Shown here: positions 1-15,714 of the stretch, piece after piece
Position numbering within the stretch: position 1 is the stretch's first letter
Layout: every line of letters starts with the position of its first letter
Source: a virus
Lineage: Duplodnaviria > Caudoviricetes
DNA length: 54,000 nucleotides
IMG/VR virus record: IMGVR_UViG_3300047316_000404
Coordinates: 1 to 54,000 of that record
Direction: 5' to 3' (one strand)
Program-made: the position numbers and the translations under genes
Notes under the pieces: generated by a model
What the model was told of the DNA's origin: nothing
Databases searched by the model: none
What the model saw: the letters and a program-made list of their open reading frames with translations, nothing else

Positions 1-320
1 AGATTTCCTTCTCCGCAGTTGTAGCAGAAGGAGACGAGGGCGTCGAACTGCCATGGCTCGAGAGGCACTTTGACAAGTTTACGTACAGCTCGCTCAAACG
101 TCCCCATGTCTTCCAGAAACGCTTGATCGCACTCTTCCATCGTCCATCGAGAGTCGGCATTGAACTCTCTCCCGTGATGATGAGTATGGCCCCAACAAAT
201 CGTGAGAACTCCAGCAGGGCAATGGTACGGTTGATAATAATCGCCAACTTTCTTCAAACAGCCTTCGTAGTGCTTGATTAAATTAGCACCCGCAGAACTC
301 AGGCTGCGATCCTCGTTCAT
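1..320 (-). CDS. Phage lysozyme/endolysin, GH24 family (runs off the window edge)
   Basis: Manual translation: MNEDRSLSSAGANLIKHYEGC...YHCPAGVLTICWGHT...PWQFDALVSFCYNCG, with the GH24 motifs EG, TIxWGHT and QFDALVSFxYNxG. Confidence 0.9.
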   Translation of the reverse strand, partial: MNEDRSLSSAGANLIKHYEGCLKKVGDYYQPYHCPAGVLTICWGHTHHHGREFNADSRWTMEECDQAFLEDMGTFERAVRKLVKVPLEPWQFDALVSFCYNCGEGN

Positions 321-592
321 GGATTGATATTCAGCCTCTTGGTCATCACGTCAACGATCCTGTCGATGCTTCCCTTGTTAGCCTTGGTCTGACTCTCCAA
401 TACCGTCAACCGGCTATCGACCGTCACCAAGTGCGGCGAACCGCGAATCTCCAGCGTGCTCACCCGCGCCTCGAGCTCGACCATGTAGGCAGTCATCGAC
501 AATACCGCCGCACCGATCGCCACGCCCTGCGCCACCAGGAAGTAGACCAGCGCCTGGTTATCCGCGAACCATGAGCGGACGCTCGTCATCAT
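317..592 (-). CDS. Small membrane protein, holin candidate
   Basis: One N-terminal hydrophobic helix followed by a coiled-coil; overlaps the lysozyme start. Confidence 0.55.
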   Translation of the reverse strand: MMTSVRSWFADNQALVYFLVAQGVAIGAAVLSMTAYMVELEARVSTLEIRGSPHLVTVDSRLTVLESQTKANKGSIDRIVDVMTKRLNINP

Positions 593-595
593 GGC

Positions 596-757
596 TCACT
601 TCTTGCGCCCCATCTTGGCCTGGCCGCGCTTGTCCTCGGCCTTGTCCTGTGCGGAAGTCTCGTAGTCCTTGAGCGACATGCCCTTGCGCTTGGCGCCGCG
701 CTTGTCCTCGGCCAGGTCTTCCTTACTACCTTCATACGACTTGCGTTTTCCGGCCAT
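596..757 (-). CDS. Small basic hypothetical protein
   Basis: MAGKRKSYEGSKED..., GGAG ribosome-binding site upstream, internal AEDKRG duplication. Confidence 0.6.
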   Translation of the reverse strand: MAGKRKSYEGSKEDLAEDKRGAKRKGMSLKDYETSAQDKAEDKRGQAKMGRKK

Positions 758-1427
758 CGGCATGCTCCGTTGCCCGATAGTTAAAAAACATGGACGCATC
801 ATGATTGCAGGGACCATACCACTGAATTGGTAGTTCCGGATAGCGCGCTTCGACCCGCGCCAGGGTATTAATTTCCCAACTCAGGTTACCTGTCTCCCGC
901 AGATGGCGCTTGCACTCGTCCCTCATCACAGCGGCGAGCGCGGCGGCGTGCTCGTGCGGCACGACCAGGAGGCCCCCGCAGAACCGCCAGCACGGGTAGC
1001 GATCGTCGTATTGGTAGTTCCTCTCCCAGCAGCCCGGGATGGCGATGGCTTCTTCGGCCTCGGCGCGGGCCATGAAATCTTCGATCACGCCGGCGGTCAT
1101 TCCCGGCAGGTGGAAGATGGCGAGATCGATCCAGACGATGACGTCGGCGCCGGGAACCAGATCGGCGGCGTCCGCGATGAGCTCGGACTTCTCCGCCTGT
1201 ACGATGTGGTAGGCGAGCGAGTTCTTGGCCGGGTTGTCGGCGGTCGAGTGGGTCACCGGCCCGTGCCGTTGCAGATGCCGGTAGAGCCAGCACGCCTCGA
1301 GCGCGGTGTCGAGGCGCAGCAACTTGATGTCGGCTGCGGCTAGTTGCGCGCCGAACCTTTCGTAGTCCCGCGCCGGGCGGGGATGGCCGGGGATTGGGAT
1401 AAAGCCGGTGACGGCCAGCACGCTCAT
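732..1427 (-). CDS. Putative glycosyltransferase (HtrL/YibB-like)
   Basis: N-terminal VTGF strand, VWIDLAIFH and WRFCGG motifs; coupled to the upstream GT2 gene. Confidence 0.6.
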   Translation of the reverse strand: MSVLAVTGFIPIPGHPRPARDYERFGAQLAAADIKLLRLDTALEACWLYRHLQRHGPVTHSTADNPAKNSLAYHIVQAEKSELIADAADLVPGADVIVWIDLAIFHLPGMTAGVIEDFMARAEAEEAIAIPGCWERNYQYDDRYPCWRFCGGLLVVPHEHAAALAAVMRDECKRHLRETGNLSWEINTLARVEARYPELPIQWYGPCNHDASMFFNYRATEHADGRKTQVV

Positions 1428-3388
1428 CGCGGCTTCTCGATGAACGCCAGCACGTCGTCGAGACCCATCCTCGCCACCCACGCCTCGCAATCCCGCACGC
1501 CGTAGCTTGCCATCAACTGCCTCCGCTCGGGAAAATACGCCAGGCCGGCCGCGAATTCGATCTGCTTGTCATGGAAATAGAACGGCATGGACATGCCGGT
1601 AACGGCGCCATCAGGCGCATAGCGCACGAACCTGTGGGCATAATAGCGGTTCGGCCGCCCTGGGATCGTGCGCGCCTCGTGTACCAGCGATAAGTACACA
1701 CCGTTAGCTTCTATAACCTGCGAGCCGCCGCTGATCGCCCTGGCGTCAAAACCGGAATCACTTTCGAAAACCACATTACCGTCGTCGTCGACCAAGGTCC
1801 CCTGCCGGTAGACGAACCGCAACTCGTCATTCTTCACCCATGGCTGCCAGTTTTTCTCGTGGTAGCGCTTCTTGGGCAAAATCCGCATCCAAGGCAGGCC
1901 GCGCGCATTGAGCGGGACCAGGATTTGCTCGCACCAGCCTTCCGCGTTGAGCTCGCGCACGTTCGAGATCGTCCACAGGGCGCCCTGCCATTCGAACAAC
2001 CGGCTATCTTCCAGACCGCGTACCGGATGAAACTTCGGTTCCGGCCAATTCTCCGGCAATGGCAGTTCGTCTACCTCGAGGATGTCCAAAGCATCGGATA
2101 AATGCACCAGATAATTGCGGGTATTGATAGGATTGACAAACCAATCAGGACTGCAAGTACCATCCTTACCCCGGATCGCATACACCCCCTCCGGCGTGAT
2201 CGTGTAATTGACAGTACGTAAAACAAGGACAGGCCTTCCTTGATAGTTGATGACCGACGGGTTGGTGGCGGCCCAGCCGTCGTCTAGATCAAATTTCAAC
2301 CATGTAGGCTTGAATGAAGGGACGTGCTCCGGCAGCGGGCGCAGATACCAGAACAGGTTGTTGCGCGCCTGCTCGCTGCCCTCGAGTGCCAGATCGTTGC
2401 AGACCTGCGCGCCGCGGTCGCGGGTTTTACCGCCTGCGTAATACGCACAGATGGAGAACTCCTCGCGCAGACCAGATTTGTAGACGAAGTCGTTGACGAA
2501 GAGCATGTCGTCGGGCTTCTTTATCTGCATGCCCGCTTGTGAGAACAAAAGACTTGCGTGATTGTCACTGCGTTCCCTAAAAAATCTAGCTGCGTCATAC
2601 AGCACTTCAGCCCGCGTTGGGCGCATCTTGTAGGCCTGCAAAATCTCCCAGACAAACTCCGCATCACGGCCCAAGTTGCCGATTGCGTGAGCGTAATGAA
2701 GTTGCGCATTCCACTGCTCTTCATCAAACCCACCAAGCCCGACCCTTATCTTGTAGTGCTCAGCAGCTATTTCCCAATTCTTAGAGTCAAAGTATGATTG
2801 CGCCAAGTAGAAGTGGTATCTTTCCACAAGACCAGGACGCATCTCGGTTTTAAGTGCCTCTTCAAGCAACGCTATATCACGCTGAAACTTTTCCGGCCTG
2901 TTGGCACCATCGGCGTGGTCAATGAAAAACACAGTATCTATCCTGCCAGACGACGCAACATCGAGATATTCGTGCGTGACTCCGCAAAATTCACCTGTCG
3001 CTTCGCAGCTGACAAAACGACGGTTATAATAATCTAGGCTTCCAGCCCGCTGCCGCACATCGTAAGACAGACCACCATTCAACCGTAGCGGCTCTTGAAC
3101 CACCAATTCCATGTCCGCGTCGGCCAATAGCAACCACTCCCATGGCAGTTGACTACGTCGCGCCAACTGTAGCGCAGCATTCCTAGCCTGGGAAAAGTTC
3201 TCGAACGATACACGCTGCAGTTCAAGCGGCTTACCTGCATCTGCGAACAACTTTTCAAGTATCTCGACCGTGTTATCCTTGGACCCGGTATCTACAATAA
3301 TAGCCCCATCTATGTGCGGCATGAGACTGCGCACACATCTTTCGATGATCCGACTTTCGTCCTTAACGATTGCGTTCCACATCAACAT
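1424..3388 (-). CDS. GT2 glycosyltransferase with TPR region and C-terminal beta-propeller/glycosidase-like domain
   Basis: IVKDE, VDTGSKDNT, DADM (DxD), GVTHEY, FYLAQSY TPR, then NPSV/GLEDSRLF/EKNW/IEFAAGL/SYGVRD propeller-type motifs. Confidence 0.85.
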   Translation of the reverse strand: MLMWNAIVKDESRIIERCVRSLMPHIDGAIIVDTGSKDNTVEILEKLFADAGKPLELQRVSFENFSQARNAALQLARRSQLPWEWLLLADADMELVVQEPLRLNGGLSYDVRQRAGSLDYYNRRFVSCEATGEFCGVTHEYLDVASSGRIDTVFFIDHADGANRPEKFQRDIALLEEALKTEMRPGLVERYHFYLAQSYFDSKNWEIAAEHYKIRVGLGGFDEEQWNAQLHYAHAIGNLGRDAEFVWEILQAYKMRPTRAEVLYDAARFFRERSDNHASLLFSQAGMQIKKPDDMLFVNDFVYKSGLREEFSICAYYAGGKTRDRGAQVCNDLALEGSEQARNNLFWYLRPLPEHVPSFKPTWLKFDLDDGWAATNPSVINYQGRPVLVLRTVNYTITPEGVYAIRGKDGTCSPDWFVNPINTRNYLVHLSDALDILEVDELPLPENWPEPKFHPVRGLEDSRLFEWQGALWTISNVRELNAEGWCEQILVPLNARGLPWMRILPKKRYHEKNWQPWVKNDELRFVYRQGTLVDDDGNVVFESDSGFDARAISGGSQVIEANGVYLSLVHEARTIPGRPNRYYAHRFVRYAPDGAVTGMSMPFYFHDKQIEFAAGLAYFPERRQLMASYGVRDCEAWVARMGLDDVLAFIEKPR

Positions 3389-3469
3389 CGCATAACCTAT
3401 ATTAGACGGGCTGAACGGTGCTTGTAACACCGCCCAGCCCTAACCACCAGCCGAGAAGGGACCTCGACC

Positions 3470-4171
3470 ATGGCTAAACTAAAGTACGCTGACTGGCCTG
3501 AAGAACGCAAGGCGCGCCAACGCGAAGCAATCAAGCAATGGAAAATAAAAAATGTAGAACTCGTAAACGAAACCGCTAGAAAAGCCTATGCTAAATGGCG
3601 AGAAACCAACCCTGCGCGCATAAAATTTACGGACGAAGAACTTAAAGCGCGCAAGCGCGAGCAAAATAAAAAATACAAAGAAGCTAACAAAGCGCGCAAC
3701 AAAAAATGGTATTACGCCAATCGCGAACGTGAAAGAGCGCGTAAAAAAGCCTGGCGACTTGCAAATCCTGAAACTTATAAGAAACGCGCTAAAGAAAGGT
3801 CTGCTGAATACAGACTTAGACATCCAGGGCGAGCTAAAGAAGCAACCGCGAAGTACCGCGCGAAACATGCTGAACACGTAAAAAAGTTGATGCATACGCA
3901 CCACATCCAACGTATGTACAAACTAAATGCCACTGACTACGCTGCCATGGTAACAGCGCAAAACAATCGCTGCGCCATATGCAACACAGACAAACCCGGA
4001 AGAAAAAACGGGCATCACTGGTACATAGACCACTGCCACAAGACCAACGCCGTACGGCAGCTTCTGTGCCACCATTGCAACCTTGGTCTTGGGTACTTCA
4101 GAGACAATCCAGCATTTCTACAGCAGGCTGCGGACTATCTGAAGCGTTTCACGCGTGCTTGCGATGCTTGA
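3470..4171 (+). CDS. Endonuclease VII-family homing endonuclease
   Basis: QNNRCAIC...IDHCHKTNAVRQLLCHHCNLGLG; AT-rich and antisense to the surrounding operon. Confidence 0.9.
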   Translation: MAKLKYADWPEERKARQREAIKQWKIKNVELVNETARKAYAKWRETNPARIKFTDEELKARKREQNKKYKEANKARNKKWYYANRERERARKKAWRLANPETYKKRAKERSAEYRLRHPGRAKEATAKYRAKHAEHVKKLMHTHHIQRMYKLNATDYAAMVTAQNNRCAICNTDKPGRKNGHHWYIDHCHKTNAVRQLLCHHCNLGLGYFRDNPAFLQQAADYLKRFTRACDA

Positions 4172-4505
4172 CGATCGCGTCGATGATGTCGCCCTTGTTC
4201 CAATGCTCACTGACTTCGGCACCCTCGCTGGCAGCCACGCTCAGCAGCTCCTCCTTGGTCATGTCGTTGAGCTGCGCCTTGGTCGACCTGGTTTCACCCA
4301 CACCGAATACGCCGCCGGTGGCACCGGTCACGCCCTCGCCGGCGGTGCCGGGCAGCTCGGTGACGGTCAAAACGTCGATCTCGTCGCCCGGAGTAGCGGT
4401 GGCGTTGGCCACGACCTGATGAACGGCATCCTCGCGGTGCAGCGCCTCGATGGTCTCGACGGTGGCGGCGTGGGTAACACGGGATTTGACTTCATAGGAA
4501 GGCAT
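4149..4505 (-). CDS. Hypothetical protein with C-terminal Rho-N/HeH-like motif
   Basis: LNDMTKEELLSVA...NKGDIIDAI. Confidence 0.6.
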   Translation of the reverse strand: MPSYEVKSRVTHAATVETIEALHREDAVHQVVANATATPGDEIDVLTVTELPGTAGEGVTGATGGVFGVGETRSTKAQLNDMTKEELLSVAASEGAEVSEHWNKGDIIDAIVKHRKHA

Positions 4506-4547
4506 CGGACGTACTCCTCTCTGGTTGAACTTTTACCACGGAATTTG

Positions 4548-6863
4548 CTACCCCGGACCACCACCGATTACAGGAGGTGGCGCAGCTGGATTTATCGGCG
4601 CCCTCTGATTCCCCAGTAAATTAACCGACTGAACGGGGGCATGGCTCAATGGCGAGGGCTGGTTTCCTTGCGCCTGGGCGGCCATCTGGGCCATGGAGGC
4701 GCCCGGAGCGCCAGACCCGGGAGCGCCGAGAGGACCCAAAGGCGCGCCACCGGTCAGAGCTGGAAGGATGCCGCGCTGGCCGGCCGGGACACCGGCTTGG
4801 CTCGCCAGCAGGCCGGCGGTTAAGTCGGAGGCGATTTTCTGGACGCCCATTTGCACGCCTTGCTGCACGCCTTGTTCGACCTTCTGGGCGAGGGCCTGCT
4901 GCTCGCCGCCGCCTTGTTGCGCCTGCTGCTGCTTTTCGAGATCGTCGTCGGACGGTACGATTTCGTCACCATCCAATCCGATCGTCTTTGACACGCTTCT
5001 AAGAACCGCGCCGCGGCCTTTAATTCCGATGATATTTTGATCTATCGGATTCGCCGTGCTCTGGAGGAACTCCAACTGTCGTTGCCGTTGCGTTTCTCGC
5101 TGAATTGCTACACCCACTCCCTGGACAAAAATATTTTCTTCACCGCTCAAAAGCCCGGTTGTATCCGACAACAACACCAGATCAAATAGTTGCTGCAATG
5201 CTCCTTCGAATATCTCGCGGTCTACGTTAGAAGCGACGGTCTGGAGAATCTTTGCCGCGTTGTTCATGAGAAGACTCAATCCGGATGCGGTGCGGCCGGC
5301 GCCGCCGGAGGCCTGGCCGCCGATGTATTTCGGGATGGCGGAGACGTCGTCGGACAGATCGAGGAAGGCCTTGAACACGGTCAGCAGGTCCTGCGCGTTC
5401 GACTGTGGCTGGAAGAATTCCACTGGCGGCTTGGCATTGTTGCCGACCGGGTCGGAGGAGGCGTGCCAGCGTTTCCAGGGGTAGAGATCGTCGGTGTTCT
5501 CCTCGGGCCGCACGCGATCGTCGTTGATGACGACCTGCGGGCCTGAGCTGATCGAGAGATTGTTGACCAGGCTGCGCAGCGTTGCGTTGGCAACGTCTTG
5601 TAGATCGGCGATCATGTCGACGAGGCCGTTGCCGACGGGGGTGCCGGGGACTTTCTCGAAGCTGGTCATGTAATAGGAATGTCTTGCTCGCGGCGAGGGG
5701 GAGAGGTTGGCCTTGATGATGTGGCTGCCGATGACGTAGGCGTCGATGTGGTAGTCGCGCAGTTCGTCGGCGACGCCCGGCATGCCGTAGTCTTGCAGGA
5801 GGCGGCCCTGGACGTTGCCGTGGAACTCCATTTGGTTGATGAGGCCGGAGCGGTTCCATGCCGGGTTCTCGCGGCTTTCGAGGACCGAGCGTTCGGCGTC
5901 GGTGGTGTCCCAGTTGTCGTAGAGGCCGCCGCGGCCGTATTCGTCGAGGACGGCACGGACCTCGGCCTGGTCGAAGCCGGGCAGGTCGAGGAGGTCGTTG
6001 AGCTCGGCGCGTGTCAGGCGGGATTTTTCGATGACGTTGGCGTTGGCGATGTCCGCCACGCCCGGCGTAAACCAGATATCGAAGGGGGATATCCGGCTCC
6101 ACACCATCTTCGGGATCTGGCGCACCAGCGGCTGGCCGTTGTTCCACTTGACCTCGGGCATGATCTTGACGGTGGGGCCCTTGATGCAGGCGAACGGGAA
6201 GATGGGGAGATCGACCAGGAATTCCGCCAGGGCCGTATAAAAATGGCCTTCCCTCAAGATCTCATCGATCCTGTCCTCGGCGACCTGGGCCTGGTCGGCG
6301 GCTTTCTTCTTGGCGGCGTCGGAGGCCGACGCCATGAGGGCGGCGCGGCGCATCTGGACGTCCTGCGGGGAAGGGGCCTGACCCATCGTCTGCATGATCA
6401 TCTGCTGCTCGTGGGCCATGAGCGCATCGATCTTCTGGACGATATCGGGCGGGACGTCGGGATCGGCGGGCGGGCGGATCGACCAGGGCCGGTCGGAGCC
6501 GAGATAAATATCGCGCAGGAGGGAGGAGGCGGCGCGGCACTTCTGGGCGGACAGGCGGGCGTAGACTTCCGAGCCGCCAAACTTCTTGACCTCCTGGAAT
6601 TTGGTTGGGGAATACTGGCCGTTGAAGGTGCGCAGAGCCTCGAGCAGGCGATTGGACCAGCCGGCGGCGGTATTGCGGTGATTGCGGAAGATTTCGAACT
6701 GGCCGCGGATGAATCCGGCGAGCTGCGGCGGCGCTGGTTCTGGCGGGGCATTAGCCTGGGCTTTGGCCAATTGTTGCTGCTGGAGATGCGCCTCCAGCGC
6801 GGCCGGAGGAACGACCTGCAGGACGCCTTGCTGGCCGAGTGGGTTGGTTGCCATGCGGGCCAT
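4548..6863 (-). CDS. Portal protein (podovirus/P22-like)
   Basis: 771 aa next to the terminase; RISPFDIW, GNGLVDMIADLQ, RTASGLSLLM motifs and Q-rich C-terminus. Confidence 0.85.
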   Translation of the reverse strand: MARMATNPLGQQGVLQVVPPAALEAHLQQQQLAKAQANAPPEPAPPQLAGFIRGQFEIFRNHRNTAAGWSNRLLEALRTFNGQYSPTKFQEVKKFGGSEVYARLSAQKCRAASSLLRDIYLGSDRPWSIRPPADPDVPPDIVQKIDALMAHEQQMIMQTMGQAPSPQDVQMRRAALMASASDAAKKKAADQAQVAEDRIDEILREGHFYTALAEFLVDLPIFPFACIKGPTVKIMPEVKWNNGQPLVRQIPKMVWSRISPFDIWFTPGVADIANANVIEKSRLTRAELNDLLDLPGFDQAEVRAVLDEYGRGGLYDNWDTTDAERSVLESRENPAWNRSGLINQMEFHGNVQGRLLQDYGMPGVADELRDYHIDAYVIGSHIIKANLSPSPRARHSYYMTSFEKVPGTPVGNGLVDMIADLQDVANATLRSLVNNLSISSGPQVVINDDRVRPEENTDDLYPWKRWHASSDPVGNNAKPPVEFFQPQSNAQDLLTVFKAFLDLSDDVSAIPKYIGGQASGGAGRTASGLSLLMNNAAKILQTVASNVDREIFEGALQQLFDLVLLSDTTGLLSGEENIFVQGVGVAIQRETQRQRQLEFLQSTANPIDQNIIGIKGRGAVLRSVSKTIGLDGDEIVPSDDDLEKQQQAQQGGGEQQALAQKVEQGVQQGVQMGVQKIASDLTAGLLASQAGVPAGQRGILPALTGGAPLGPLGAPGSGAPGASMAQMAAQAQGNQPSPLSHAPVQSVNLLGNQRAPINPAAPPPVIGGGPG

Positions 6864-12516: not shown

Positions 12517-12749
12517 TGGATTGTCCTCGCTTGTTTGATGGGCGCCCGCCAAGGCCGCCCTGGTTCCGGTAATATTGCCCAGAGCGCCATATGGCGCAAG
12601 AGCGGCGGCCTCTGTTAATGTTTAATCATTCCGTCCGCCGGGCCGGCTGCTTCGGTCCTCGCGGCAGCCAAGGGACACCTGGGTGTCCCGGATGCCCGCG
12701 GAAGGATAGGGCCGGCCGGGACGCCAATCCCGCCGGCCCGCCCCGCCGT

Positions 12750-13064
12750 TTACCAGACTTGCCACCAATTTTTGTCGGATACGGGTGGCTTCAGGCAATC
12801 CGCTATCGATGGCTTGGCAACGCGCTCGACGTAATCGGCCGGAAGTTTTCCGTTTGCGATGAAATACGCGCCGTCCTCCATCGTGCTCCTGTTGGCGGCA
12901 GCGAGGACGTAACAACTGCAATAAGCGTTGTTGTTATTCATTCCCGCCAAACAAGTTGCCATTGCCTCCTTTATAAAGGCGAGCGTGTTCGCCTGGTCCA
13001 GCGGTGTCGCATGCGCCGCAACAGGCAACAATAACGTGCTCGCAAGCAATAATCGTTTCATCAT
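12750..13064 (-). CDS. Secreted Cys-containing hypothetical protein
   Basis: MKRLLLASTLLLPVAAHA signal peptide, YCSC motif, GAGGA ribosome-binding site. Confidence 0.7.
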   Translation of the reverse strand: MMKRLLLASTLLLPVAAHATPLDQANTLAFIKEAMATCLAGMNNNNAYCSCYVLAAANRSTMEDGAYFIANGKLPADYVERVAKPSIADCLKPPVSDKNWWQVW

Positions 13065-13112
13065 GGTCGTTTGTCCTCGCTTGTGTGCCGCGCCATGCGG
13101 CGAGTCGGAACT

Positions 13113-13167
13113 GGACTCATCAGGCGCCGCGTCACGGCGCGACGGGGGTTAGTTCCCCGTTTCATCC
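13113..13167 (-). ncRNA. Type II hammerhead ribozyme (HH1)
   Basis: Minus strand: ggau GAAA cgggg-aacuaac-ccccg UC gcgccg-ugacg-cggcgc CUGAUGA gucc; complete core, GUC triplet. Confidence 0.85.
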
Positions 13168-13343
13168 TTGTGGCTGCGGGCCTCCAGCCAGGCCCGCTCG
13201 AGTCGCGCGATCATGAGGGCGGCGCGCTGGCATAGGTCTGCGGTGGCGGAAGAGCGTCCCGGGTGCGCCTCGGTCAGCTCGCGCGAGATGGCCTCAACCT
13301 CGGCCTGCGTCGGCGGTGTGCTATGGTCGTCGTCTGGCGACAT
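13149..13343 (-). CDS. Hypothetical protein
   Basis: GAGGA ribosome-binding site; stop codon lies in the HH1 stem III loop. Confidence 0.55.
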   Translation of the reverse strand: MSPDDDHSTPPTQAEVEAISRELTEAHPGRSSATADLCQRAALMIARLERAWLEARSHKDETGN

Positions 13344-13488
13344 GGCGTCATTCCTCGTTGGTGGGTTGCTGGAACATTTCGACAATCAGATCAAGATTGG
13401 CCTGTAGCGCGTCATCGGAGAACAGGCCAATGTCGCCACTGTCCTCGCATTTTGGGCGCCCGCCAAGGCGCCGGGTTGGTGGTTATCT

Positions 13489-13547
13489 GGACTCGTCAGG
13501 GCCGGCGATACCGGCCGACCGGGCACAACAAGCGCCCGGTTTCGTCC
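13489..13547 (-). ncRNA. Type II hammerhead ribozyme (HH2)
   Basis: Minus strand: ggac GAAA ccgggcgc-uuguu-gugcccgg UC ggccgg-uaucg-ccggcc CUGACGA gucc. Confidence 0.9.
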
Positions 13548-14009
13548 TTATGCCGCCGATCGATTGCGATCTATCCCCCAGGGCGCGGTCTCGTAATCGG
13601 GAAGCCCATTAATCGCCCGCGACCGGATTGCCGCTATAATCCGGTGCGCGACCGTCTGCCGATAATCGTCGGTCTCGCAAGCCTGATAGTCGAAACAGTC
13701 GCAATTTTTGATGACCCAGACGCAGCGCTTCATGTGCCCCATATGGACGAATGGCTCAAAATACCGGAACGTATAGCCGCTCGCGTCCTCGCCGATCTTG
13801 CCCGGCATGTTGCCAGGGCCGCAATCCGGGTAACGATGGCAGACCGACCGTTCGTTCTCGGCCAATAGTACGCGGCCGATATCAGTCCAATCAAACAATT
13901 CAGCCTTACTCGGCTGAATGTAATAGCCGAACTGGTCTTTCATCCGTTTATCCTTAGCGAACGAAAGTAGCGCGTCGATATGGTCGTGGGAAACTACGAA
14001 AGCGGACAT
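13548..14009 (-). CDS. Hypothetical phage protein
   Basis: MSAFVVSHDHIDALL...IGRVLLAENERSV...CFDYQACE; ribosome-binding site present. Confidence 0.75.
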   Translation of the reverse strand: MSAFVVSHDHIDALLSFAKDKRMKDQFGYYIQPSKAELFDWTDIGRVLLAENERSVCHRYPDCGPGNMPGKIGEDASGYTFRYFEPFVHMGHMKRCVWVIKNCDCFDYQACETDDYRQTVAHRIIAAIRSRAINGLPDYETAPWGIDRNRSAA

Positions 14010-14094
14010 TTGCATTGTCCTCGCTATGTCGACTCTCGCCAAAGAGGCCGGCCTGATCGCCGATCATGGGCACCGAAATGCCCATGGGCTGCAA

Positions 14095-14301
14095 TCAGAT
14101 CGTCAGCTCTGGGTAATGCACTGTCCATGCATATGGAGACGCTGGCGAACAAGCTACTACATCCCATTGCGGAACAAGATCAGGATGCGCCTTGCAGAAT
14201 GCGCAGCTGCAGCCGCCTTCGATTGGTCTACGCAGATCACCAGGAAGTGGCATGAATAGCGTATCACCCCGTTTGGTTACTCTCGTGCCGTTGAAATGCA
14301 T
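14095..14301 (-). CDS. Small Cys-rich hypothetical protein
   Basis: GCSCAFC motif; GAGGA ribosome-binding site. Confidence 0.6.
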   Translation of the reverse strand: MHFNGTRVTKRGDTLFMPLPGDLRRPIEGGCSCAFCKAHPDLVPQWDVVACSPASPYAWTVHYPELTI

Positions 14302-14357
14302 TTGATCGTCCTCGCATGTTGTCGGACACTCGCCAAAGCGCCCGGTTCGTTGTGTCT

Positions 14358-14409
14358 GGTCTCATCAGTGACGGCATTACCGCCAGACGGGCAAAAGCCC
14401 GTTTCGACC
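14358..14409 (-). ncRNA. Type II hammerhead ribozyme (HH3)
   Basis: Minus strand: gguc GAAA cgggc-uuuu-gcccg UC uggcgg-uaaug-ccguca CUGAUGA gacc. Confidence 0.9.
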
Positions 14410-14595
14410 TTAACGCAGAACGTCATCAACAAATTTCGCCTTGCGAATATCATCCTCCTTGGCTATGCGCGCCGCCTCCAAAGCTTCTTTTTTGGTTTCA
14501 TATCCAACATAGGAAACTTCATAGCCTTCGCTATCAATTACCCACCAAAAGCCATCGCGCTTCATGGGAGCGTAGGTCTGATAAATGCGGGTCAT
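14410..14595 (-). CDS. Small hypothetical protein
   Basis: GAGGA ribosome-binding site; first gene after an AT-rich promoter-like tract. Confidence 0.6.
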   Translation of the reverse strand: MTRIYQTYAPMKRDGFWWVIDSEGYEVSYVGYETKKEALEAARIAKEDDIRKAKFVDDVLR

Positions 14596-15025
14596 TTGTT
14601 TGATCCTCGCTTTGCGCCCAAGCCATTCGGGCTTGCAATCAACAACCTATCAAACAAATACAAAAAGAAAACCGTAAAGAACCAGAAAGATCCACACAAA
14701 TCCGCACACGAGCGCGAAAGTTTGTTGCGTCCGCCATGTGCCATTTAGGAAACAAAGAGAGGGGGCTCTCGATTTGTGCCATGGCGCGCCCGAGCCGGGA
14801 AAAGGTCGCTCCATCTGGTAGTTTTAGTGCCATATGGTCTATTTAGTGCCATGATGGAGCGTTTCCAATCCGGCACACCCATCAGGATACCTTTAGGCCG
14901 GTGCGCACAGCACGCGTGAGGGCCGCGAGCGCCTAAGCCGCTGATATCATTACGTTGTGGTAGTGGGGTACGCTGGGATCGATGTTTGGAGCATAGTTCC
15001 AGACCATCTACGACCAGCGGCGAGG

Positions 15026-15355
15026 TCAATCTCCCCCGTCTTTAACGGGAGTTTTCCGGACGAATGCTCCAGGGGCGACTTCCTTGCCCCGAGCGCCGTG
15101 AAATGGATTTGTCCCCATCCTATACGGCCATAACGGGCAGTGGACAGCCGTGCAGCGCCGGACCTCGGATTGCTGGTAGCAGCAGCAGTCCAGACATTTC
15201 GCCCGGATAACCGCCATGATCGAGCGCTTTTGATGCGCTTGCCTTAGGACTTCGGGCGCCAGGTCGTCCGGATGCCGGCCTTCCGTCGAACCGTCCGGAT
15301 GCCGGACAATGAAGGATTCTGATAACGAATTCGGTGCAATATCGTCGATGGGCAT
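15026..15355 (-). CDS. Zn-binding hypothetical phage protein
   Basis: IRAKCLDCC...EVRRC...CPLWPYRMG motif; GAGG ribosome-binding site. Confidence 0.7.
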   Translation of the reverse strand: MPIDDIAPNSLSESFIVRHPDGSTEGRHPDDLAPEVLRQAHQKRSIMAVIRAKCLDCCCYQQSEVRRCTAVHCPLWPYRMGTNPFHGARGKEVAPGAFVRKTPVKDGGD

Positions 15356-15714
15356 GGTGGCCTCTTATCCAGGTTGCTGTGCCAAGTGGCCGGGCGGTGA
15401 CGCAATCACCGTCCGGCTGCGCCTATCGTAGCACAGCTCGCGCCCGCGAACATCCTCACACCCTCCCGCGTAATTTTGTTGCGTCAAGCTACAGTTCTCC
15501 GCGCACCTCGCCCCCATCCGCCCCCCCCGGTACGCCCCCCCCGGACCCCCCCGGTAGGCTGGCCAGGCCACCCCCATCGATCTTCTATATCAGTGCCCCC
15601 CGCATATCTGTCCGCTGTTTTCCCATTTCAACCGTTAGTATAGAATTCGGCTATGGTTCGCCTTGTTGGTTTTAGAACTTCGATTTTGGGTTTCCCTTAT
15701 ATAGGACTAGACCT

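Follow-up and report, generated by a model that had tools for sequence, protein, structure and literature searches.

Three clustered type II hammerhead ribozymes predicted in a small-gene run of an uncultured tailed phage, and their probable role as insulators

The gene run and its three ribozymes

The window considered here (the whole stretch of DNA that was analysed, 54 kb) belongs to an IMG/VR virus record, 86% complete according to CheckV, whose gene content includes a portal protein, an AAA_25 helicase-like protein, a C5 DNA methylase and a YqaJ-type recombinase. It derives from an uncultured tailed phage. Judged by the portal protein, the nearest isolated phage is Rhizobium phage RHph_TM27A (57% identity), so the host is probably a Rhizobium-like alphaproteobacterium. 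RHph_TM27A itself yielded no hammerhead with a second covariance model, R1, a run made without a positive control, so that its empty answer shows little. Within a leftward (minus-strand) run of genes lie three predicted hammerhead ribozymes, here termed HH3, HH2 and HH1 in the order of transcription, with genes and ribozymes all on one strand. The region gave no match to isolated phages by blastn, and HH1 used alone gave chance-level matches only. From upstream to downstream along the minus strand, the features are as follows.

14595-14410, minus strand: 61-aa gene, whose TAA at 14410 adjoins HH3; no homologue in five relatives
14409-14358, minus strand: HH3, GUC at 14388-14386, predicted cut between 14386 and 14385
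14306..14357, minus strand: leader after HH3, consisting of a 9-bp hairpin and then the shared ribosome-binding motif GCGAGGAC
14301-14095, minus strand: 68-aa gene, the first gene of the predicted 869-nt HH3-HH2 fragment; no homologue in five relatives
14015-13548 (ORF 13548..14042), minus strand: 155-aa gene, whose TAA at 13548 adjoins HH2
13547-13489, minus strand: HH2, GUC at 13519-13517, predicted cut between 13517 and 13516
13343-13149 (ORF 13149..13385), minus strand: 64-aa gene, within the predicted 376-nt HH2-HH1 fragment, its C-terminal residues coming from HH1
13167-13113, minus strand: HH1, GUC at 13143-13141, predicted cut between 13141 and 13140
13064-12750, minus strand: 104-aa gene, the first to lie past the HH1 cut, from which its start codon is separated by 76 nt

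Searches of Pfam and PHROGs gave nothing useful for the five small genes lying between 14600 and 12700 on the minus strand. The 155-aa protein is encoded by ten viral contigs (77-93% identity), and all of its homologues are unnamed metagenome proteins; among genome contigs, no relative of it was confirmed. It is predicted to be all-helical (pLDDT 90.5), and the model has no solved look-alike, as there was no Foldseek match at E<=0.001; nor did the sequence match any PDB entry below E 0.07. The 104-aa protein has an N-terminal hydrophobic segment that, by eye, resembles a signal peptide. A scan for promoters and terminators revealed no convincing minus-strand terminator between the genes, allowed no promoter to be placed, and gave no usable operon boundaries. 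A look-up of RNA runs for positions 12700-14700 listed none containing this DNA.

The three ribozymes share one minus-strand order: 5' strand of stem II, GAAA, stem III hairpin, GUC, stem I hairpin, CUGANGA, and 3' strand of stem II. The conserved core (CUGANGA, GAAA and a UH cleavage triplet, here GUC) is present in every copy. HH3 combines the core CUGAUGA/GAAA with stem II GGUC/GACC, a 6-bp stem III looped by UUUU, and a 17-nt stem I hairpin, while HH2 combines CUGACGA/GAAA with stem II GGAC/GUCC, a 9-bp stem III and, again, a 17-nt stem I hairpin. In HH1 stem II is GGAU/GUCC, the innermost pair being a G-U wobble. The pairs adjoining the core (A15.1-U16.1, 10.1-11.1 and 1.1-2.1) are otherwise standard: an A-U pair closes stem III in all three copies, and the core-adjacent pair of stem II is G-C in HH2 and HH3. 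The HH1 wobble reflects a synonymous change from GAC to GAU relative to the corresponding copy in a related contig, L127. A G-U wobble at this position may make HH1 a slower ribozyme. Minimum-energy folding reproduced the three-helix layout for HH3 and HH2, with stems I and III looped and stem II open to the flanks; for HH1 it formed stems I and III and placed the stem II strands elsewhere. The first-pass annotation had put the cuts 3' of positions 13141, 13517 and 14386, and the minus-strand positions of the GUC triplets bear this out.

The relation of the ribozymes to stop codons is close, and was also correctly described in that annotation, which had HH2 and HH3 beginning immediately after a TAA and HH1 lying over the end of a gene. 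The stops at 13548 and 14410 do end one base ahead of stem II of HH2 and HH3, and HH1 overlaps the last seven codons of the 64-aa gene, with the TAA stop (13151-13149) inside loop III and the predicted cut 8 nt past it. By tblastn, the 64-aa protein aligns to contigs L125, L126 and L132 as far as residue 57 and no further, which argues that its last residues are dictated by the ribozyme, and not vice versa. The same association with gene ends recurs among 90 distinct hammerhead copies. An upstream ORF of at least 40 codons ends near the ribozyme in 86 of them; in 66 the distance from the end of the stop to stem II is between -3 and +1 nt (a spacing that has no chance control), and in four the stop falls inside loop III, HH1 and its L127 counterpart included; and the median distance from the cut to the next start codon is 54 nt. 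Tight packing of genes may explain the spacing of the stops.

Model searches, covariation and the wider subclass

How readily might such elements arise by chance? The bare core pattern occurs three times against 0.12 expected, and none of 100 shuffles reached three. A stricter scan, with a minimum of four pairs for stems I and III and of two for stem II, returned exactly HH1, HH2 and HH3, all on the minus strand, with four pairs in stem II, six to nine in stem III and seven in stem I. A covariance model, R2, made from 80 hammerheads of other viral contigs, with the window and its relatives left out, scored HH3, HH2 and HH1 at 66.8, 64.6 and 58.6 bits (E 2.5e-16 to 4.6e-14), and no fourth or degenerate copy was found in the window, the best other match reaching 10.9 bits with R1 and 12.5 bits with R2. 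The earlier description of three complete type II hammerheads on the minus strand is thus upheld by sequence, by the structural scan and by R2. The search with hammerhead models that had been proposed as a check gave a divided answer, in that R2 finds all three copies strongly whereas the Rfam model RF02276 stays below its cut-off with two and misses HH1: it gave HH2 32.4 and HH3 30.6 bits, under the 37-bit gathering cut-off, and did not report HH1 at E<=10, so that Rfam at its gathering threshold had no match anywhere in the window. That threshold is a curated score and not a biochemical criterion. By sequence and structure, then, HH1-HH3 are to be classed as real type II hammerheads rather than products of chance.

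The stems differ from copy to copy but co-vary, as the first-pass annotation had it, and here the relatives of the phage provide the clearest view. An alignment of the three window copies with 11 distinct copies from close relatives has standard pairs in all 208 of its 208 stem cells, and eight of the 16 pairs change on both sides. Its covariation score is 0.505, compared with 0.137 after shuffling and at most 0.099 when the pairing partners were slid. Loop I is closed by an invariant U-G, and there are further G-U pairs; because of these, only RNA of the minus strand can adopt the fold. The 80 independent copies have 98.8% of their cells paired and compensatory changes at 12 of the 16 pairs, in an alignment that was fitted to the model structure and so leans towards it. 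The fold of these elements is under selection.

Nine of the ten relatives that encode the 155-aa protein have two to four hammerheads at matching places, with different stem sequences. An identical copy of HH2 is found in L126, and L127 has a counterpart of HH1 with the same overlap of the stop. In L134 there are no hammerheads, and the 155-aa gene ends in a stop that overlaps the start of the gene after it; one copy in L125 has GAGA in place of GAAA, and one in L126 has CCGAUGA in place of CUGAUGA. The ribozymes are therefore dispensable in some relatives.

The elements of the window belong to a subclass that is rich in phages and common in phage contigs. A search of 100 other viral loci gave 80 model matches, with up to 11 in one 5-kb stretch (L018). 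Stem II of the subclass has 4 bp (GGNC/GNCC) and stem III is variable. Of 88 distinct copies, 82 have an A just ahead of stem II, and AG usually comes next after the stem, though the AG is partly imposed by the search pattern. The stem I hairpin has 17 nt in 58 of the 88, its far end then being G-U-N-A-N-G-C (U in all 58, A in 48). In cellular genomes, a real copy of the same build was present in six of 80 loci searched (of 120 fetched); the cellular pattern matches are mostly due to chance, and no host was assigned from them. Only three of about 55 copies of this build, in 16 related or similar loci, passed the Rfam cut-off, and since the subclass mostly lies under that cut-off, routine annotation undercounts such elements.

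A pseudoknot between loop I and the 3' tail was sought in 77 copies, where the mean longest complementary run was 2.88, against 2.89 after shuffling; a pseudoknot between loops I and III likewise gave no signal. With these pseudoknots absent, another tertiary contact would have to hold stems I and II together, and fast cleavage at cellular Mg2+ would need such a putative contact. Perhaps it is made by the conserved bases of loop I with the A and AG that flank stem II.

Self-cleavage, insulation and the alternatives

What might three ribozymes within 1.3 kb, each bounding one or two genes, do for the phage? We think it probable, by analogy with clusters known to cleave and with the type II hammerheads that are cleaved in vivo in D. 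vulgaris, that they are functional type II hammerheads that cut a polycistronic RNA and so uncouple neighbouring genes, each acting as an insulator. That the transcript cuts itself into gene units, as the first-pass annotation supposed, is a published hypothesis and a plausible one here; cleavage in vivo, co-transcription of the genes and an insulating or stabilizing effect are what we infer from the arrangement. During synthesis of the polycistronic RNA, stems III and I would fold as local hairpins, the 4-bp stem II would close, and the core would cut 3' of the C in GUC, so that the upstream piece ended in a 2',3'-cyclic phosphate and the downstream piece began with a 5'-OH. After the cut the four base pairs of the short stem II would be all that held the pieces together, and these would then separate. 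The predicted products are an upstream message ending just past the TAA of the 61-aa gene, a piece of 869 nt with the 68-aa and 155-aa genes, a 376-nt piece with the 64-aa gene, and a downstream message beginning 76 nt ahead of the 104-aa gene. The GC-rich stem III hairpin would come to stand at the 3' end of each upstream piece, and the GC-rich stem I hairpin at the 5' end of each downstream piece. It is this consequence of the type II topology, the provision of a fixed, hairpin-capped end for each gene, that would uncouple neighbours in decay and translation and make the ribozyme an insulator. Unmasking of ribosome-binding sites by cleavage was considered and set aside, as the predicted folds are unchanged across the cut: the sites are equally open before and after it, and no translational switch is evident.

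Besides the ribozymes there is a second recurrent element. A leader consisting of a hairpin followed by GCGAGGAC is common to five small genes, and its history can be compared across the relatives. The block 14410-14306, comprising HH3 and its leader, is 85-90% identical in four relatives, and both genes that flank it in the window (those for the 61-aa and 68-aa proteins) are without homologues in the five relatives compared. Similarly, the 3' half of HH1 with its leader (13146-13061) precedes a different gene in L125, L126 and L127, and a deletion ending at the leader took away the front of a 60-aa gene. As the HH3 and HH1 blocks have been kept while the genes beside them differ, the non-coding junction outlasts the genes. 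One hypothesis, from a sample of one lineage, is that it works either as an insulator that is portable or as a site of recombination.

In the first form of that hypothesis, which we offer tentatively and think rather unlikely, ribozyme and leader would together be a portable, self-trimming junction for the exchange of small accessory genes among phages. Selection would then keep the hammerhead together with the shared leader, and a gene inserted between two junctions would be released, regardless of what flanks it, with one standard set of hairpin-capped ends and one standard ribosome-binding site, in what would amount to a gene-cassette system at the level of RNA. Bolder still would be the addition that the 376-nt HH2-HH1 piece also exists as a circle. 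The persistence of ribozyme and leader beyond the genes around them is a testable lead on why phages keep these ribozymes.

The second form, which we judge less probable again, differs in making the ribozyme and leader mainly a site of recombination, with cleavage secondary or serving only to insulate newly arrived genes. It would account for the conserved HH3 block between unrelated neighbours, for the half of HH1 that stands before different genes, for the single leader ending in GCGAGGAC shared by five genes and for the deletion with its end at the leader. However, recombination needs sequence identity alone, and retention of the core and of compensatory stems across unrelated phages would be left unexplained; moreover, the comparison of junctions involves five relatives of a single lineage, and the boundaries of mosaic blocks are intergenic in most phages anyway.

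It is much less likely that cleavage reports on translation, in the sense that a ribosome terminating at the upstream stop would unfold stem II and the core, so that only poorly translated messages were cut. This reading invokes the size of the ribosome footprint, and would draw on the position of the stops, which abut the ribozyme in HH2 and HH3 and lie within it in HH1, as well as on their spacing in the larger set of copies (66 of 90 close to stem II, four of 90 in loop III). But the close packing of phage genes would give the same spacing with no sensing at all, and relatives do well with an overlapping stop and start and no ribozyme, as in L134.

We give slightly less credence still to the proposal that fragments bounded by two ribozymes are circularised, or their flanks spliced, by the reverse hammerhead reaction or a host ligase. 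Circularisation of such fragments had been suggested in the first-pass annotation and is not supported; only the 376-nt piece has matching ends. These could rebuild a hammerhead, because the GUCC of HH2 is the same as that of HH1 and pairs with the GGAU of HH1; and the ends left by cleavage have the chemistry needed for ligation, according to the account of such ends in Olzog et al. (2021; PMC8782182). In the 869-nt HH3-HH2 fragment, on the other hand, an A-A mismatch would fall in the middle of the 4-bp stem II. Four base pairs are also all that would join any such ends, the genes between the ribozymes are furnished with ordinary stops and leaders, and Perreault et al. (2011; PMC3088659), who looked in clusters of this kind, detected neither circular nor spliced products. 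Circles from this locus are thus unlikely. Least credible of all is that the elements are chance look-alikes or dead relics without activity, for although the unmet Rfam cut-off, the mutated cores in two relatives and the wobble pair adjoining the core of HH1 would suit such a view, it is contradicted by the threefold occurrence of a core pattern expected 0.12 times, by scores of 58-67 bits with an independent model (R2), and by the complete pairing of 208 stem cells with compensatory changes.

The locus adds no new principle. It does offer a compact test case, in which three ribozymes would yield four defined fragments and one of the copies is also read as the end of a coding sequence, and the natural relatives are informative in that some keep the ribozymes, some have mutated cores and one is without any.

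Relation to known systems

Functional analogies are provided by the cutting of the messages of T7-like phages between early genes by RNase III, and by RiboJ, a synthetic ribozyme insulator. The likeness is one of function only: a long message is cut between genes, leaving hairpin-capped ends and expression of each gene independent of the others. The difference from the T7-like system is that the RNA of the window is predicted to cut itself.

The closest parallel is with the clustered hammerheads that flank single genes in prophages, described by Perreault et al. (2011; PMC3088659). In the results given there, three triple arrangements from other bacteria were active in vitro, and one was active in E. 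coli; segmentation of mRNA and formation of circles were both proposed, and the same results include no detectable circular or spliced products. The window resembles those clusters in its type II topology and full consensus core, and in the crowding of several copies into about 1.3 kb of a phage's coding strand, where they flank small genes; the processing and circle hypotheses of that paper match those of the first-pass annotation. It differs in having a loop I of only 5 nt with no pseudoknot to the 3' tail, whereas the paper's description of the class has this pseudoknot in most type II hammerheads, though not all, and the paper's data show it to matter for fast cleavage. Stem II has 4 bp in the window, and the paper's remarks on this helix call 'as few as two' common for the class. 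Further differences are that one copy in the window overlaps a coding end and that cleavage in the window is predicted. The pseudoknot-free build may already be represented in the supplementary alignments of Perreault et al.

The Rfam family RF02276 (Hammerhead_II) has the same core, the same order of helices and the same A and AG flanks of stem II, and HH2 and HH3 align to it over 66 of 66 positions; the departure lies in the scores, which are below the 37-bit cut-off for these two, and in HH1 going unreported. A further comparison is with Desulfovibrio vulgaris, in which three type II hammerheads cleaved both in vivo and in vitro, according to the cleavage results of Olzog et al. (2021; PMC8782182). 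They are of the same type and stand in a phage-like gene context, two of them near each other; the window differs in its host and flanking genes, and cleavage there is inferred from sequence.

The segmentation hypothesis is also in print in PMC6765202, and a review (PMC6155905), in its treatment of bacterial hammerheads, mentions small non-conserved ORFs flanked by hammerheads, and a link with phages, with the role given as unknown; the relevant parts of both treat the role of hammerheads in bacteria and phages as an open question. [quoted passage not shown]

The leader shared by the small genes

Five small genes of the leftward operon have a leader in common, in which a GC-rich hairpin is followed by an invariant ribosome-binding motif, GCGAGGAC. 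The stem sequences of the hairpins vary between copies, and the loop is close to UUGGCG. Against an expectation of 3.15, the window contains 11 copies of the motif, most of them within the operon. This leader may be bound by a regulator of translation, or its hairpin may have a stabilising role.

Copies of the shared leader in the window
14306-14349, minus strand, leader copy
14017-14066, minus strand, leader copy
13438-13485, minus strand, leader copy
13066-13112, minus strand, leader copy
12523-12567, minus strand, leader copy

Directly after the hammerhead HH2 and its adjoining leader is a 28-codon open frame (13348-13431, minus strand) that has no ordinary start codon. Its match is a 60-aa gene, over the C-terminal half; this gene is complete in three viral contigs closely related to the window (L125, L126 and L134). 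Compared with these relatives, c. 400 nt have been lost from the window here, through a deletion that stops at the common leader motif.

Loci compared for the 60-aa gene
L125, 2895-3380
L126, 3799-4005
L134, 3420-3638

Hammerheads in other contigs

Two of these relatives carry hammerheads that are intact except for one core element, GAGA replacing GAAA in L125 (2780-2844) and CCGAUGA replacing CUGAUGA in L126 (4626-4683); these natural core mutants could serve as negative controls without further engineering, or they may reflect decay. An array far denser than that of the window is present in an unrelated viral contig, L018, in which 11 hammerheads of the same build (the subclass with a 4-bp stem II) lie within c. 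5 kb (170-5158, minus strand), or about one per small gene.

The ribozyme-bounded protein and a neighbouring Rfam match

The 155-aa protein encoded between ribozymes (13548-14015, minus strand) is one of a family of unnamed metagenome proteins with at least 124 members, in which H12, C113 and E114 are invariant and the motif C-x-C-F-D-Y-Q-A-C-E is conserved. Its predicted structure is confidently all-helical (pLDDT 90.5), and no look-alike of the model was found among solved structures.

PtaRNA1, the Rfam model of a plasmid antisense RNA, matches weakly at 15349-15424 (+ strand), with 29.1 bits against a cut-off of 47 and an E-value of 0.0057 for the 3.5 kb searched. The match overlaps the start of a minus-strand 109-aa gene and is probably due to chance.

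The gap with no hammerhead

Only one intergenic gap of the stretch, that between the 68-aa and 155-aa genes, has no hammerhead. A long imperfect hairpin, with a stop codon inside it, is predicted there (14050-14100, minus strand), and the fold of 13995-14100 has a z-score of -3.0, equalled in one of 200 shuffles. We speculate that this hairpin may be a processing site for a protein nuclease such as RNase III, doing the same job as the hammerheads, an idea that comes from the biology of T7.
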